Shown: positions 12,970 through 21,471, numbered from the stretch's first letter. The stretch is DNA of 26,878 nucleotides from an uncultured bacterium (GCA_964534375.1 CAZHPN010000071.1:1-26878), one strand, 5' to 3'. Notes: generated by a model from the sequence alone, not told the origin. A program made the numbers and translations.

Positions 12970-16395
<3,426 letters not shown>

Positions 16396-16399
16396 CGGT

Positions 16400-16999
16400 T
16401 CAATAGTCCCTGTTTTGTTTTCGCTGCCGATAAAGCCGCTCGGTGAACCCGCCCTCGGCCAGAAACGCCCGCTCCAACGCCTCTAATTGGCGCGCGAGCA
16501 GGTAACTCGCCTGGTTAATCAGGCAAATAATCGTGTTGGCCGCCGTCTCCGCGGCGGCGCCGCGAATGTTGTAAGGGTCTGACGAGTCCGACCGGTCTGA
16601 CTTGTCTGACCCGTCTGACCCGGCCGGCCTTTCTGACCCGCCCGGCAGATATTTGCGTCTCACGGCGAGCGCCTCGGGCGAATTTTTGGCCCACAGCCGC
16701 AGGCCTTTTTGGCGCAGAAAATCTTCGTAATCGAGCAGCAGCTCTTCAAGACTGGCGCGCGCCACGCCGGTCAGCTTCAACTCGGTCTTCTTCGAGGTCG
16801 CCGACGCCATGCTGCCCTCGGCGATGTTCTGCACGCCGCTCCGCGCGGCCTGAACCATTTGGTCGTGCGTGCGCGACCGCGGGTTCACAAACCGGTCGCA
16901 GAAGACGACCGTGGCGTCGTAAGCCGCCTGCGCCGTTTGGAAACTGCGCAATTTGCGATAGCCGCCATGCGGCGGAATCAACCGGCTGTCATCAGGCAT
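16400..16999 (-). CDS. Four-helix-bundle protein (23S rRNA IVP / Avd-like fold) with 'four helix bundle suffix' C-terminus
   Basis: [54 protein letters not shown] and [15 protein letters not shown]...EGGFTERLY. Internal SD-x repeats. Confidence 0.9.
16577..16639. repeat. Nonamer array (GTCTGACnn) inside the four-helix-bundle gene
   Basis: gtctgacga gtccgaccg gtctgactt gtctgaccc gtctgaccc ggccggcct ttctgaccc; encodes [21 protein letters not shown]. Confidence 0.9.
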
Positions 17000-17047: not shown

Positions 17048-17101
17048 GTCGGACGAGTCTGACCGGTCTGACTTGTCTGACCCGTCCGACCCGGCCGACC
17101 C
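17048..17101. repeat. Nonamer array (GTCTGACnn), upstream copy
   Basis: gtcggacga gtctgaccg gtctgactt gtctgaccc gtccgaccc ggccgaccc. Confidence 0.9.
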
Positions 17102-17218
17102 GCCCGGATCGGCCGCGTTCGTTCTTCGCGCCAATCGACGCCGTCTCGGCGCCGAGTCACATTGGCGCGACTCAGCCGCCATTTTTCGTCGCCTCGACCC
17201 GCGCGGCCCCTGCGGCGA

Positions 17219-17263
17219 GTCTGACTTGTCTGACCCGTCTGACTTGTCTGACCGATCCGACTC
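17219..17263. repeat. Nonamer array (GTCTGACnn), third copy
   Basis: gtctgactt gtctgaccc gtctgactt gtctgaccg atccgactc. Confidence 0.88.
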
Positions 17264-17309
17264 GGCCGCATGCTTTCTGTCCGCCGAAAGGCGCGCCGAG
17301 GCGCCATGA

Positions 17310-17523
17310 TGTCGGCGGCCTTCAGGTGAAACGTGTCTTCCGGCACCCGGAACGTCAGGGAGAAGTAATCACAGCCCCCGCTCCAGTCATCGTGATACTG
17401 ATGCTCGACTCTATATTTCGAATTGACCACAGCCGCTATGAGAGGCTGTTCGTCCATTTTCTTGTAATACGACGCAAGTGCGGCAAGAAGGGGCTCCGCG
17501 TGTTCTTCAAGGTAATATGCCAT
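17310..17523 (-). pseudogene. Truncated N-terminal fragment of an accessory protein (resembles N-termini of R-M-associated TIR-domain proteins)
   Basis: The ATG at 17523 overlaps the hsdS end. MAYYLEEHAEPLLAALASYYKKMDEQPLIAAVVNSKYRVEHQYHDDWSGGCDYFSLTFRVPEDTF then degenerates into repeat-derived sequence. The family call is from recall of the DNWNGG-type motif. Confidence 0.5.
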
Positions 17524-18748
17524 TCGACACCCCCGACAGCAGCTTCGGCAACAGCGCGTCGCGTACGACAGAAAGCGTGCGCATCTGTCGTTCGTTCTGT
17601 ACCTTTCGATCAAGCAGAGCGCCAACGATACGATCAAATGCAAGCGAAATGGCCGCGGGCGGCACGACGATCCGCAGGTTCCTAAGGGAAGTCAAAGGAC
17701 GAGCAATCGCCGGAACGCCCGTGGTTGATGTGTTTGCGAGAAGATCACGCATTCCAGACGAAACAGCGAAATGAAGATAGACGTAGGTACGACTGATCCT
17801 CTTCTCGTCCACTTCAAGCAGCATTTGGCTTTGAGACACGACGTATCGGTCAAACCGTGCCATTGTCGGAATCATCCCAACTTGGCCAAGCGTCCCCCGA
17901 TGTGTAAAGACGATTGCACCGGGCGAAGCGTTGGAGCCTTTTAGTTCGTCGGCCTTCTGTGCCGTCAAATAGACGAAGTTGTCATCAACGAAACCGTTGT
18001 TCATATTTCTGCCGCGAACCACCGGAACACCGGCGGGAACGAAGTTGTCGGTTTTGATATTCGATCCAAACGGCCCCATCGCCAGACGCAGTGCGATCGT
18101 TTCGATCGTCGCAACGGCCCACTCCTTCGGAATCTTCCCCAACTCGGAATCGACAAACGAGGAGGGAAACAACGCGGCGGTGGCGTCGTACATGCCATCG
18201 GGGCGGCGGCCGGCGGCCTTGGCACGGACGGGATCAAAGTCCACGAACCACGACTTGAACAGTGCCCGCGCCATCGCCTCCAGCGTCTCGTTCATGCGCC
18301 GGTTCAACTCGATCTTGTCGTCTAGCGTGCTCAGGACGTGCGCGATACGCTTTTGCTCGACGAGGGGCGGAACGCGGATGCGAATTGGATGAATATAATT
18401 CCGATTCAGCGACGGTTGCGCGCTGCCGGAGTTGAAGCGAGAGAAGTCAATAGACTTTAGCAGATAGTAAGCAAAACGTTCATCGTTTTCATGGAAGTCG
18501 ATGACATAGAGCGCGGTGTTCAATGGCCAGTAATCGGACGCGCAGTAGTTGACGACGCCGAATGACGCGCCACTCCGACCTACCATGACACCAGGGCCTT
18601 TCGCTTTCGCCTCGTCATGCCATCCGGTCAAACCGAAAGAACCCATTACTGGTATTTTACCAGGACGGCGCACTTGATCCGGCAGATCATGCCCCCTCTG
18701 AAGGGTAACGAAGTCGCCAAGGCCTATGTCGCTCCAACTACTCGCCAA
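17507..18748 (-). CDS. hsdS: Type I restriction-modification specificity subunit S
   Basis: Two TRDs with the conserved spacer PPLVEQKRIAHVLSTLDDKIELNRRMNETLEAMARALFKSWFVDFDPV and the C-terminus RDALLPKLLSG. TTG start. Confidence 0.95.
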   Translation of the reverse strand: MASSWSDIGLGDFVTLQRGHDLPDQVRRPGKIPVMGSFGLTGWHDEAKAKGPGVMVGRSGASFGVVNYCASDYWPLNTALYVIDFHENDERFAYYLLKSIDFSRFNSGSAQPSLNRNYIHPIRIRVPPLVEQKRIAHVLSTLDDKIELNRRMNETLEAMARALFKSWFVDFDPVRAKAAGRRPDGMYDATAALFPSSFVDSELGKIPKEWAVATIETIALRLAMGPFGSNIKTDNFVPAGVPVVRGRNMNNGFVDDNFVYLTAQKADELKGSNASPGAIVFTHRGTLGQVGMIPTMARFDRYVVSQSQMLLEVDEKRISRTYVYLHFAVSSGMRDLLANTSTTGVPAIARPLTSLRNLRIVVPPAAISLAFDRIVGALLDRKVQNERQMRTLSVVRDALLPKLLSGVSNGILP

Positions 18749-18929: not shown

Positions 18930-19229
18930 TCATGTACCTTGGATCACCTCATATTTCTTTTCAATCACCTTACGGAAGCTTTTGGTTGTGGCCGCCCAGT
19001 CGATCACATCGACGCGAAAGGGCAGGTCCGACTCCTCGAAGGCTTCGCGCAGCAGGCGCAAGGTATCCGAGTCGAGTTTGCGCCGCCCGACGACGGCCAG
19101 ATCGAGGTCCGAATATTTCTTGGTCGTTCCGGCGACGCGGGAGCCGAAGGCGCGAACTTCGCATTCCGGCACGTGCGCCGCCAGGATGCACCGGATCGTT
19201 TGCAAATGGTTGGGGTTGACGTCAATCAT
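18930..19229 (-). CDS. Minimal nucleotidyltransferase (MNT) antitoxin
   Basis: FGSRVAGTTKKYSDLDL (GS-x10-DxD) and LREAFEESDLPFRVDVIDW. Confidence 0.92.
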   Translation of the reverse strand: MIDVNPNHLQTIRCILAAHVPECEVRAFGSRVAGTTKKYSDLDLAVVGRRKLDSDTLRLLREAFEESDLPFRVDVIDWAATTKSFRKVIEKKYEVIQGT

Positions 19230-19644
19230 TTCGCGCTTGCAGGGCCTTTAGCAGCTTCTGGGCGTCGCGGGCGAACTCGTGCGCCGCCTTATAGACGCTC
19301 TGGGCAATGTGGGGGTCGTACGAGTGCGAGGTCTGATTCCTCGCGGCGTTGTGCCGCATCCATTGCTCCACGTCGTCGATCAACCGGCTCTCCGCGGCCA
19401 GCCGAAAGAGTTCGCGCCGCGTCACGCCGTCCGCGGCGTCGGGGCTGACGTTCGTTTCCAGCCAGCGCTTCATGAACTTCCAGGACAATTCGTAGGTGAA
19501 CTCGAAGTGCTGGATGACGCCGGACTTGATCGCGTTCCGGGCCATTTTATCCAGTCCGCGCATAAATTCCACGTTGTTGCTTGTCGCCAACACGCCATTC
19601 AACGCGGCAACGGCTTTCTTCAGGCTGCGAAGGTCAAGCGGCAT
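19222..19644 (-). CDS. HEPN toxin, HI0074-family nucleotidyltransferase substrate-binding protein
   Basis: GVIQHFEFTYELSWKFMKRWL and the R-x4-H motif RNQTSH. Overlaps the MNT start. Confidence 0.92.
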   Translation of the reverse strand: MPLDLRSLKKAVAALNGVLATSNNVEFMRGLDKMARNAIKSGVIQHFEFTYELSWKFMKRWLETNVSPDAADGVTRRELFRLAAESRLIDDVEQWMRHNAARNQTSHSYDPHIAQSVYKAAHEFARDAQKLLKALQARND

Positions 19645-19684: not shown

Positions 19685-21292
19685 TCAAAATCCCAGCCCC
19701 TTCAAATTCTTCCGAATCTCCTTCTCCAGCTTCGCCGACTCCGCAAACTGCCTCTCCAGGTCGGCCACGAGGCGCTTCATCTTGTCGGCGAACGGCTCGT
19801 CGTCTTCTTCGACTTCTTCCGCGCCGACGTACCGTCCGGGCGTGAGGACGTGGCCGTGGCCGACGATCTCGGCGGTCTTGGCCGCCTTGCAGAACCCGGC
19901 GATGTCCGCGTACTTGCCTGCCTGCGCCGCGTGCGCCGCGGCAGGCAGGTCGCCGCGCCAGGCGTGATACGTGCCGGCGATGCGGAGAATATCTTCCTCG
20001 GTTAACTCGCGGTGAACGCGGTCAATCAGCGCCCCCATCTTGCGGGCGTCGATAAACAGCGCCTCGCCGCGGCGGTCGCGGAACTGCCTGCCTGCCGCGC
20101 CGGCGGCGCAGGCATGGCCGTTGCCCTTGTTGCGGGCCAGGAACCACAGGCAGACGGGGATTTGCGTCGAGTAGAACAACTGCCCCGGCAGCGCAACCAT
20201 GCAGTCAACGAGGTCGGCTTCGATGATCTTGCGCCGGATCTCACCCTCGCCGGATTGGTTCGACGACATGCTGCCGTTGGCCAGCACGAAGCCGGCGATG
20301 CCGGTCGGCGCGAGGTGATGGATGAAATGCTGCACCCAGGCGAAGTTGGCGTTGCCGGCCGGCGGCGCGCCGAATTTCCACCGCACGTCTTTGACCAGGC
20401 GGTCGCCGCCCCAATCGCTGTCGTTGAACGGGGGATTGGCCAGGATGAAGTCGGCCTTGAGGTCGGGGTGCAGATCGCGGTGGAAGCTGTTGGCGTGTTC
20501 CGGGCCGAGGTTGTTGTCGATGCCCCGGATGGCGAGGTTCATCTTGGCCAGCTTCCAGGTGGTCGGGTTCGACTCCTGGCCGTAAATGCTGATGTCGCCG
20601 GCGCGCCCGCCATGTGCCTCGACGAACTTCTCCGACGAGACGAACATCCCGCCGGAGCCGCAGCAGGGGTCGTACACCCGGCCCTTGTAGGGCGCCAGCA
20701 TCTCGACCAGCAGGCGCACGACGCACCGGGGCGTGTAGAACTGCCCGCCGCGCTTGCCCTCGGCGCTGGCGAACATCGACAGGAAATACTCGTACACGCG
20801 GCCGAGGATGTCTTTCGAGCGATTCTCTTTGTCGCCCAGGCCGATCGTGCCGATCAGGTCGATCAGCTCGCCGAGGCGCTGTTTGTCGAGCGCCGGGCGG
20901 GCGTAATCCTTCGGCAACACGCCTTTGAGCGTCGGGTTGTCGCGCTCGATGGCCTCCATCGCCTGGTCGAGCAACTTGCCGATCTCCGGCTGCTTGGCCT
21001 TGGCTTGCAGAAACGGCCAGCGGGCTTCTTTGGGCACCCAGAAGACGTTTTCGGCGCGGTATTCGTCGGGGTCTTCGGCGTCGGCGTATTTTTCCGCCTT
21101 CAGCGCGTCGTGCCGCTCTTGGAAGGCGTCCGAGATGTATTTGAGAAAGATCAGCCCCAGCACGACGTGCTTGTACTCGGCGGCGTCCATGTTGTTGCGC
21201 ATCTTGTCGGCTGCGGCCCACAGCGTGGCCTCGAAGCCGAGATTCGCTCCGCCGTTTTTTTTGTCGCCGTTGGTTTTCTTCGCCCGCGCCAT
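19685..21292 (-). CDS. hsdM: Type I restriction-modification methyltransferase subunit M
   Basis: [52 protein letters not shown] (N6-MTase motif IV) and LTPGRYVG. Confidence 0.97.
19917..19949 (+). mobile_element. 33-bp non-autonomous copy of the CCTGCCTGC element, in frame in hsdM
   Basis: CCTGCCTGCGCCGCG-TGCGC-CGCGGCAGGCAGG: the 15-bp left end and 13-bp right end are identical to those of the GIY-YIG element. Encodes (D)[10 protein letters not shown](G). Confidence 0.8.
20087..20116 (-). mobile_element. 30-bp non-autonomous copy of the CCTGCCTGC element, in frame in hsdM
   Basis: Minus strand CATGCCTGCGCCGCC-GG-CGCGGCAGGCAGG. Encodes [10 protein letters not shown]; removing it gives [13 protein letters not shown]. 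Confidence 0.8.
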
Positions 21293-21471
21293 GAAATTCA
21301 CGCCCCTGTCCGCGACGATTCATCGCGTACTTTCGCCGATCACTGTGACAGCCGAGGTCACATCCCCGATGAACAATCGCCGTTGCAATGCGCTTTACAT
21401 AGAACGATCAAGCCGGGAAGGCAAGACGGGAGAGGGAAAAGCGGCCGGCCGACCGAATGATTGATTTCATT

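Follow-up and report, generated by a model that had tools for sequence, protein, structure and literature searches.

Background

Rickettsia palindromic elements (RPEs) are about 100-150 bp long and confined to Rickettsia and its relatives, and we know of no enzyme or mechanism that has been attached to them in the 25 years that they have been known. They are palindromic repeats found in frame within unrelated genes; the available portion of a published account describes their translation and an apparent tolerance of them in loops (PMC10969869). A 26,878-nucleotide stretch of DNA from an uncultured bacterium (GCA_964534375.1 CAZHPN010000071.1:1-26878; the whole stretch is called the window here) contains a type I restriction-modification (R-M) operon with elements of a similar kind. 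Its hsdM gene carries two in-frame pieces of 33 bp and 30 bp, referred to as minis, and its hsdR gene carries a 282-bp element with the same ends that encodes a GIY-YIG nuclease module. A first reading made without database searches (the sequence-only reading) had compared these pieces to RPEs, and the analogy holds in behavior, in that the insertions are in frame, free of stop codons and tolerated in loops. Like RPEs, the window family is palindromic, translated and found in diverse open reading frames (ORFs). Unlike RPEs, it has minis of 24-39 bp, occurs in more than 15 phyla, is open in all six frames and includes a nuclease-coding form; the two are set apart by description, not by sequence.

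Repetitive extragenic palindromic (REP) sequences and REPINs are a second point of comparison. They are also imperfect GC-rich palindromes, 20-40 bp in length, present in tens to hundreds of copies per genome, some of them intragenic. A survey of REPs covers intragenic copies, and in the portion of that survey available a GTAG or CGTC tag defines the class (PMC3733652). The ends of the window family are CCTG...CAGG, without either tag, and neither its periodicity of 3 nor its GIY-YIG partner form has a REP counterpart.

MITEs, or miniature inverted-repeat transposable elements, resemble the minis in that a short, non-coding form consists of the terminal inverted repeats found in a longer form that encodes an enzyme, is dispersed in multiple copies and outnumbers the longer form. 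The minis differ from MITEs in having no target-site duplication and in being far below the usual MITE size, and their longer partner encodes not a transposase but a GIY-YIG nuclease without a start or stop codon. The available portion of a 2024 MITE review mentions neither GIY-YIG nor endonucleases nor restriction.

Homing endonuclease genes of the I-TevI type and inteins are likewise selfish nuclease genes within host genes, and the repeated occupation of conserved sites (residue 500 of HsdM and residue 839 of HsdR for the modules studied here) is shared with them, as are, in the case of the I-TevI-type genes, intact catalytic motifs across the module family. In contrast to these systems, the module is not part of an intron or intein, has no DNA-binding extension (it is 94 residues long) and is placed by its sequence in the Slx1/UPF0213 branch. 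The closest published case is that of Dunin-Horkawicz et al. 2006 (PMC1564403), who noted a 'unique' Slx1-family GIY-YIG insertion at about position 800 of an HsdR and remarked that the GIY-YIG domain may invade new loci. This insertion, the only case they noted, probably corresponds to the site mapped here at residue 839, and conserved ends, a hairpin, minis and other hosts are not mentioned in the part of that paper available. Beyond the 2006 insertion, the available portions of the literature, supplements aside, yielded no published description of the ends, of the minis or of the range of hosts, and this widespread family appears to be undescribed.

Insertions in the hsdM gene

Both minis are in hsdM (19685..21301, minus strand), which matches N6_Mtase (E 1.2e-103) and HsdM_N in Pfam. 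The 33-bp mini, CCTGCCTGCGCCGCGTGCGCCGCGGCAGGCAGG, lies at 19917..19949 on the plus strand, reverse relative to hsdM, and is read in phase 2 as 11 residues. The 30-bp mini, CATGCCTGCGCCGCCGGCGCGGCAGGCAGG, lies at 20087..20116 on the minus strand, forward on the gene strand, and is read in phase 0 as 10 residues; there is thus one window mini for each of the two phases used. The full-size element of 282 bp, with its 94-residue GIY-YIG module (Pfam GIY-YIG, E 1.8e-15), is at 15734..16015 on the minus strand, in frame in hsdR, where it splits HSDR_N, the N-terminal nuclease domain. It has neither a start nor a stop of its own, and its ends are the same as those of the minis.

An exact-match search of the window found the 15-mer left end exactly twice, at 16001-16015 (-) and 19917-19931 (+), and the 13-mer right end exactly three times, at 15734-15746 (-), 19937-19949 (+) and 20087-20099 (-). 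The sequence-only reading had described the 33-mer as carrying the exact 15-bp left and 13-bp right ends of the module in the opposite orientation, and had described 20087-20116 (-) as a 30-bp copy; the search agrees with the first statement, and a direct reading of the strand together with the third 13-mer agrees with the second. The copies had also been called in frame and stop-free, and the translation of hsdM indeed runs without a stop through both mini peptides, as the module is in frame in hsdR. A bulged hairpin (-15.3 kcal/mol, z = -3.0) is predicted for the 33-mer, with a stem of 7 bp and 6 bp interrupted by a 2-nt bulge and closed by a small loop. The shorter mini agrees at 28 of its 30 bases with a 30-mer variant of at least five other genomes (L057, L073, L092, L093 and L101).

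Comparison of the window's HsdM with 22 homologs (78-91% identity) showed that neither mini peptide was present in any of the 22, and the peptides are therefore not ancestral sequence. At the 30-mer site, 19 of the 22 homologs had nothing, which makes the mini a clean 10-residue gain in a loop, and the other three had an unrelated 6-residue insert, LGxxGK. Removal of the 30-mer leaves NK(K/G)NG-xFRDRRGE, which the earlier reading had taken to be a typical HsdM segment and which the 19 empty homologs confirm. The 33-mer site is the loop after YHAWRGD, which in relatives can be as short as 3 residues or exceed 30. Alignment with the nearest solved HsdM, 3khk, has a 9-residue gap at each mini position; loop placement rests on these gaps and on the indel pattern of the homologs, the AlphaFold2 model of HsdM (23-row alignment) having a mean predicted local distance difference test (pLDDT) score of 34. 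In a wetland contig with a related hsdM, the match to the window ended exactly at 19950, one base beyond the 33-mer, where the empty form ...KGAGEF followed. The contigs of four wetland runs contained the filled form alone, and no joint bridged either the minis or the module; because contigs drop rare variants, this has no bearing on excision.

The 33-mer site is a recurrent hotspot for minis. The same HsdM loop contains a clean 30-nt forward mini in L222 and L229 and is empty in L252, and it contains a 33-mer in L284 and shortened or decayed copies in L239 and L227. A target preference, which had been suggested for the three copies in the window, is supported by these independent minis in other HsdM genes. 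The loop is also a general indel hotspot: in L139, L140 and L186 it holds unrelated insertions of 17-35 residues without hairpin ends.

Both hsdM pieces are almost certainly real insertions of a repeated mobile family. Two observations on them count against the leading explanation given below. The net gain at the 33-mer site is 7 residues (+21 nt) relative to the common D-KGA-GKY form, not 11. In addition, the 30-mer did not fold better than its shuffles (z = -1.4).

Chance likeness of GC-rich, Ala- and Gly-rich coding sequence was considered as another explanation. The genome is 64% G+C, and the bare 9-mer core has 70 matches in it, compared with about 140 estimated from base composition, so there is no enrichment of the core. 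The genome-wide count of the motif proposed in the earlier reading found only three further minis (C14:45282, C16:14461 and C46:11580), for a total of five copies in the genome; no second module was found in the remaining genome. Chance similarity was ruled out by the exact 13-15-mers common to the three window copies, by the homologs without the peptides, and by hundreds of copies elsewhere where control patterns were at 0, and it is given practically no weight.

Conservation of the mini family

Minis were sought in one genome per species with a pattern that fixed 11 nt at each end, and at least 122 loci were found in many phyla, while a control pattern gave 0 matches in nearly all genomes. 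One listed locus comes from a genome flagged as unpublished (G065), and no result rests on it. The mini ends are a 13-15-nt imperfect inverted repeat, CCTGCCTGCGCC...GCGGCAGGCAGG, with CCTG...CAGG outermost, which forms a hairpin with a 2-nt bulge.

The lengths of the 122 listed minis were 33 bp (67 minis), 39 bp (14), 30 bp (13), 36 bp (10), 27 bp (3) and 24 bp (1). Multiples of 3 made up 108 of the 122, including 41 of the 55 that were not 33 bp. The same was found for 24 of the 29 probable intergenic minis among the matches listed, and because intergenic copies also show it, the length periodicity belongs to the family itself and does not come solely from filtering after insertion. A stop codon in any of the six frames was present in only 4 of the 122 listed minis, whereas 1000 shuffles of the loop gave 16.7 on average and no value below 8. 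A flanking C and a flanking G, which the pattern did not demand, were present in 106 and 108 of 117 listed minis, respectively, and the next 3' base was a pyrimidine in 98 of the 117. At most 3 of these 117 had a 3-nt target-site duplication.

Compensatory change was observed in the inner stem of 42 different 33-mers, where pair 12-24 was CG in 30, AU in 10 and GU in 2, a covariation confined to inner-stem pairs because the outer arms are fixed by the pattern; the sequences with AU may all descend from one event. In the same 42 sequences, 20 of which were picked by eye, 96.3% of cells were paired, compared with 92.1% in shuffles, and none of 500 shuffles reached the observed value.

Copy numbers reached 88-116 in some genomes, and some copies were inside longer repeats. 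Among 40 relatives, copies were found in one distant genome only. Viral contigs contained 24 matches to the mini pattern (L296-L319), three of them on one contig. Several intergenic minis were located within genome-specific tandem heptamers or short direct repeats, namely CTCGGCT and CGAAATC in G078 (L332-L337) and ACCGCAAAG in G042 (L327-L331), and in L332 the heptamer array keeps its register across the hairpin. Two of the further minis in the window's own genome (G000), at C16:14461-14490 and C46:11580-11609, are likewise intergenic and within CCCGAAT heptamer arrays.

The GIY-YIG module family

A search of 1.84 billion protein representatives with the 94-residue module gave 472 matches at E values up to 1e-10. 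Among the best 150 of the 472, nearly all align across the whole module and are inside proteins of 116-1101 residues, and the boundaries of the module are always LPAP... and ...RQAG. HsdS was the host in 42 of the best 60 matches, a share that is inflated by the 50% clustering of the representatives, HsdS being variable; the other hosts include HsdR, HsdM, trigger factor, QueC, ArgRS, TfoX and TatD. Neither an intein nor a Hint domain was found in the module hosts with Pfam, GIY-YIG being the only find.

All eight of the modules that were identified by protein similarity in different phyla have identical left 12 and right 10 nt, with interiors about 55% identical, and this invariance at the nucleotide level points to selection on the ends as DNA or RNA. 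A metagenome scan that used just the ends, spaced 255-285 nt apart, and drew on no protein information found at least 110 distinct elements. Of the 110 listed, 105 were multiples of 3, 103 were open in the LPAP frame and 101 contained Y[IV]G. Conservation over 103 modules, whose median identity is 60%, was 0.99 at Y12, Y22 and R32 and 1.0 at E57 and E69.

The module matches 1ywl (E 5e-17) and 1zg2 (E 6.5e-16), and it scores far below the cut-off of TIGR01453, the model for the I-TevI branch. By sequence it is assigned to the minimal Slx1/UPF0213 (YhbQ-like) branch and not to that of I-TevI. Stand-alone relatives with 33-46% identity are encoded in the same genomes, and these do not have the LPAP and RQAG ends.

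When mapped onto residues of the window's HsdR and HsdM, as were the minis below, modules were located at HsdR 126 (3 loci, including the window organism), HsdR 221, HsdR 839 (9 loci) and HsdM 500 (14 loci). The flanks were GA|...|YG in about 87 of the 110 listed elements, although the sites are not independent. In this R-M family, the two commonest module sites are both empty in the window (19802, HsdM residue 500, and 13876, HsdR residue 839), and its module is at the rarer HsdR 126. One HsdS (P0123) has two modules. A module in MsrB (L138) has an extra LP...-like stretch near its end, and a module-bearing trigger factor (P0134) also has a mini-like stretch, LPAEDSAQAG.

Other cargo sizes between the ends were few in these sets, which were selected by size and provide only a weak test: five pairs were found at 46-269 nt and none at 313-3000 nt. 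Intermediate end-to-end pairs of 60, 66, 71, 96 and 99 nt (L084, L209, L251, L057 and L268) could be double minis or partly deleted modules.

Hosts and insertion sites of the minis

Hosts were assigned by taking the longest open frame across each listed mini, and the 85 frames of at least 150 residues were scanned against Pfam, which identified a family in 38. Type I R-M subunits account for eight of these 38 hosts: HsdR in L058, L065, L066, L069, L080 and L085, an HsdM-like methylase in L068 and HsdS in L089. A further five hosts are DNA methylases of other kinds or helicase-nuclease proteins, and the remaining hosts include DnaE, TsaD, ParB, a glycosyltransferase, a phosphoketolase and a penicillin-binding protein. 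Minis favor the variable loops of type I R-M subunits. This bias suggests either a niche that favors horizontal spread or an interplay with restriction itself.

A bias of this kind would also be expected if the hairpins were retained for a function in the host operon, as sites of recombination or phase variation or as mRNA structures that tune R-M expression. The strength of the preference for R-M and other defense genes is consistent with this, as is the preservation of the stem by compensatory change. The family is, however, also hosted by QueC, MsrB, ArgRS and trigger factor as well as by DnaE, TsaD and ParB, it is present sporadically among close orthologs, and its insertion positions vary, and retention for such a function is very improbable.

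Among 27 Pfam-supported minis within proteins, a hand-curated set, 23 were in phase 2, four in phase 0 and none in phase 1, and 12 were forward and 15 reverse. Phase 2 reads LPAP..RQAG in the forward orientation and LPAA..AQAG in the reverse orientation, and phase 0 reads PACA..AGR. Mini sites were mapped to HsdR 99, 253, 257, 439, 506 (3 loci) and 696 (2 loci), and to HsdM 331, 448, 450 and 462. Orthologous HsdR proteins (67-80% identity) provided pairs of empty and filled sites at 126, 506, 696 and 839, each precise and each following a GAY or CAY codon, and none of the pairs showed a target duplication beyond a 1-nt ambiguity. The orthologs in L069 and L080 were empty at the window's module site.

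The positions of the two forms bear on whether minis are footprints left in place when the interior of a module was lost by recombination between its inverted ends. A mini does consist of both module ends and a few bases between them (LPAPR-xx-RQAG), and in HsdS one mini (residue 178) is within a residue of two modules (residue 179), at a host identity of 38-40%. In HsdR and HsdM, where 15 mapped minis are at about 10 sites and 27 mapped modules at 4 sites, there is zero overlap, and because the sites differ, decay of modules in place is unlikely as a general source of minis. Minis also occur in both orientations and in phase 0, which a module could not use, and many of them are intergenic. 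Footprints are accordingly regarded as improbable, though a little less so than a host function.

Association of minis with modules

The flanks of the 110 listed modules, 624 kb in total, contained 29 minis on 22 of the 110 loci; one of these loci, L185, is from the window's own organism (99.98% over 10 kb) and is not independent. The density of minis beside modules is about 0.046 per kb. The richest genomes reach 0.02 per kb at most, and a typical mini-bearing genome has about 0.001 per kb, a difference from the latter of about 50-fold. The local clustering noted in the window is therefore repeated elsewhere, with a mini on the same contig as the module in a fifth of the listed loci, and in L058 and L085 a mini and a module are in one HsdR ORF each. 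Minis and modules agree in reading phase and in the genes that host them, type I R-M subunits foremost. The modules look site-specific and homing-like, and the minis more dispersed. In a sample of 151 genomes from one phylum, 23 had minis and two had the module (related genomes are not independent, and metagenome-assembled genomes, MAGs, are incomplete); the two module genomes had 88 and 114 minis, which places them with the most mini-rich genomes.

A common origin of the hsdM minis with the GIY-YIG element is very likely. The proposal that the minis are MITE-like partners of the module is supported as far as ends, phase, hosts and neighborhood are concerned, and departs from MITEs in the absence of a target-site duplication. 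The explanation given the most weight, and considered fairly probable, is that a pan-bacterial family bounded by palindromes has the hsdM inserts among its miniature, non-autonomous members, with the GIY-YIG nuclease moving both forms.

The family lives as in-frame insertions in protein-coding genes, in two size classes with the same ends. The interior of the class of about 282 bp is a nuclease of the Slx1/UPF0213 type without start or stop, translated only within its host protein, and the mini class, of 24-39 bp (mode 33), contains little beyond the two ends. In this explanation the ends would be the cis-acting site, recognized as a hairpin or cruciform, and the structure-specific GIY-YIG nuclease would supply the DNA break by which both forms are moved or copied, which would make the minis MITE-like partners of the nuclease-bearing form. 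The specific step of naming the GIY-YIG nuclease as the mobilizing enzyme is tentative, with the doubts slightly outweighing the support.

Several observations weigh against a role for the nuclease. GIY-YIG enzymes are hydrolytic nucleases for which, to our knowledge, strand-transfer activity is not known, so a transposase-like role would be new. The module in the window reads VHIG, with His at residue 22, where 102 of 103 modules have Tyr; the substitution may make it catalytically inactive, and because of this change in the YIG motif all three window copies are probably fossils. The invariance of the ends within the pattern-derived sets is partly by construction, since the search patterns fixed 11-12 nt per end. 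The co-occurrence of minis with this GIY-YIG clade is weak at the genome level, and by the refuting condition named in the sequence-only reading, minis are indeed common where the clade is lacking: the module was present in 5 and absent from 45 of 50 mini-bearing genomes (MAGs being incomplete), and in the one-phylum sample 21 of the 23 mini-bearing genomes were without it, including genomes with 116, 108 and 63 copies. The isolate-derived G079 has 48 minis and no module. High copy number can also reflect hitch-hiking, because in G044 (L045, L047, L048 and L095) the commonest 33-mer is inside a repeat of at least 220 bp with a second hairpin, CACCTTTTCTTGGGCGGCAAGAAAAGGTG, and in G042, G045 and G078 the intergenic minis are flanked by genome-specific repeats.

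In an alternative explanation the hairpin would be primary, a REP-like repeat propagated by different machinery (a host enzyme, another enzyme or replication slippage at hairpins, for example), with the GIY-YIG frame a passenger that once entered the loop of one such hairpin and the hsdM copies owing nothing to the nuclease. In its favor, minis spread well beyond modules, module-less genomes contain 48-116 copies, intergenic copies are in genome-specific composite repeats and heptamer arrays, and intragenic REPs are known (PMC3733652, in the portion available). On the other hand, the ends have no GTAG or CGTC tag, and the REP-RAYT arrangement was not found: five mini-rich genomes have 19 Y1_Tnp loci, and within about 1.5 kb to either side a canonical mini was present at none of them and a degenerate one at a single locus. 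Strong purifying selection acts on the core of the nuclease, whose median identity is 60%, and this counts against a passenger because a mere passenger would not need it. The ends at 255-285 nt spacing nearly always enclose this cargo, and the roughly 50-fold enrichment of minis beside modules is a further point against this alternative. It is unlikely on balance, and still carries more weight than the other alternatives.

The fuller form of the nuclease-driven explanation is an unrecognized class of mobile element, in which a GIY-YIG gene that exists only in frame would mobilize itself and the minis by structure-specific cleavage, without target duplication, and for which type I R-M genes would be the main niche and the vehicle between phyla. 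As a whole this is offered cautiously, being somewhat less probable than its opposite. If true, it would be the first RPE-like family of in-frame palindromic elements with its enzyme identified, and the invariant ends shared with a nuclease-coding form make the question of an enzyme for in-frame palindromes directly testable. The family also shows a route, independent of introns and inteins, by which proteins gain insertions in loops and entire inserted domains. It is a systematic and as yet unannotated source of odd peptides (LPAP..RQAG and PACA..AGR), and R-M subunits and housekeeping enzymes owe it annotations as a 'GIY-YIG fusion'.

Other features of the operon

All genes of the operon described here are on the minus strand. 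Between hsdM and hsdS is a pair at 18930..19644 consisting of a HEPN-like (NTase_sub_bind) gene and an MNT nucleotidyltransferase gene. The hsdS gene (17507..18748) belongs to the same operon and has no insert. A gene resembling the 23S-rRNA intervening-sequence protein (16400..16999) separates hsdS from hsdR (12970..16395), the host of the module. In wetland run X1, one contig skips 193 nt at 17097-17291. Within hsdS, the bin at 18237-18397 has a summed contig depth about 10-fold higher, with a T>C difference at 18263, as if this segment were common to many organisms.

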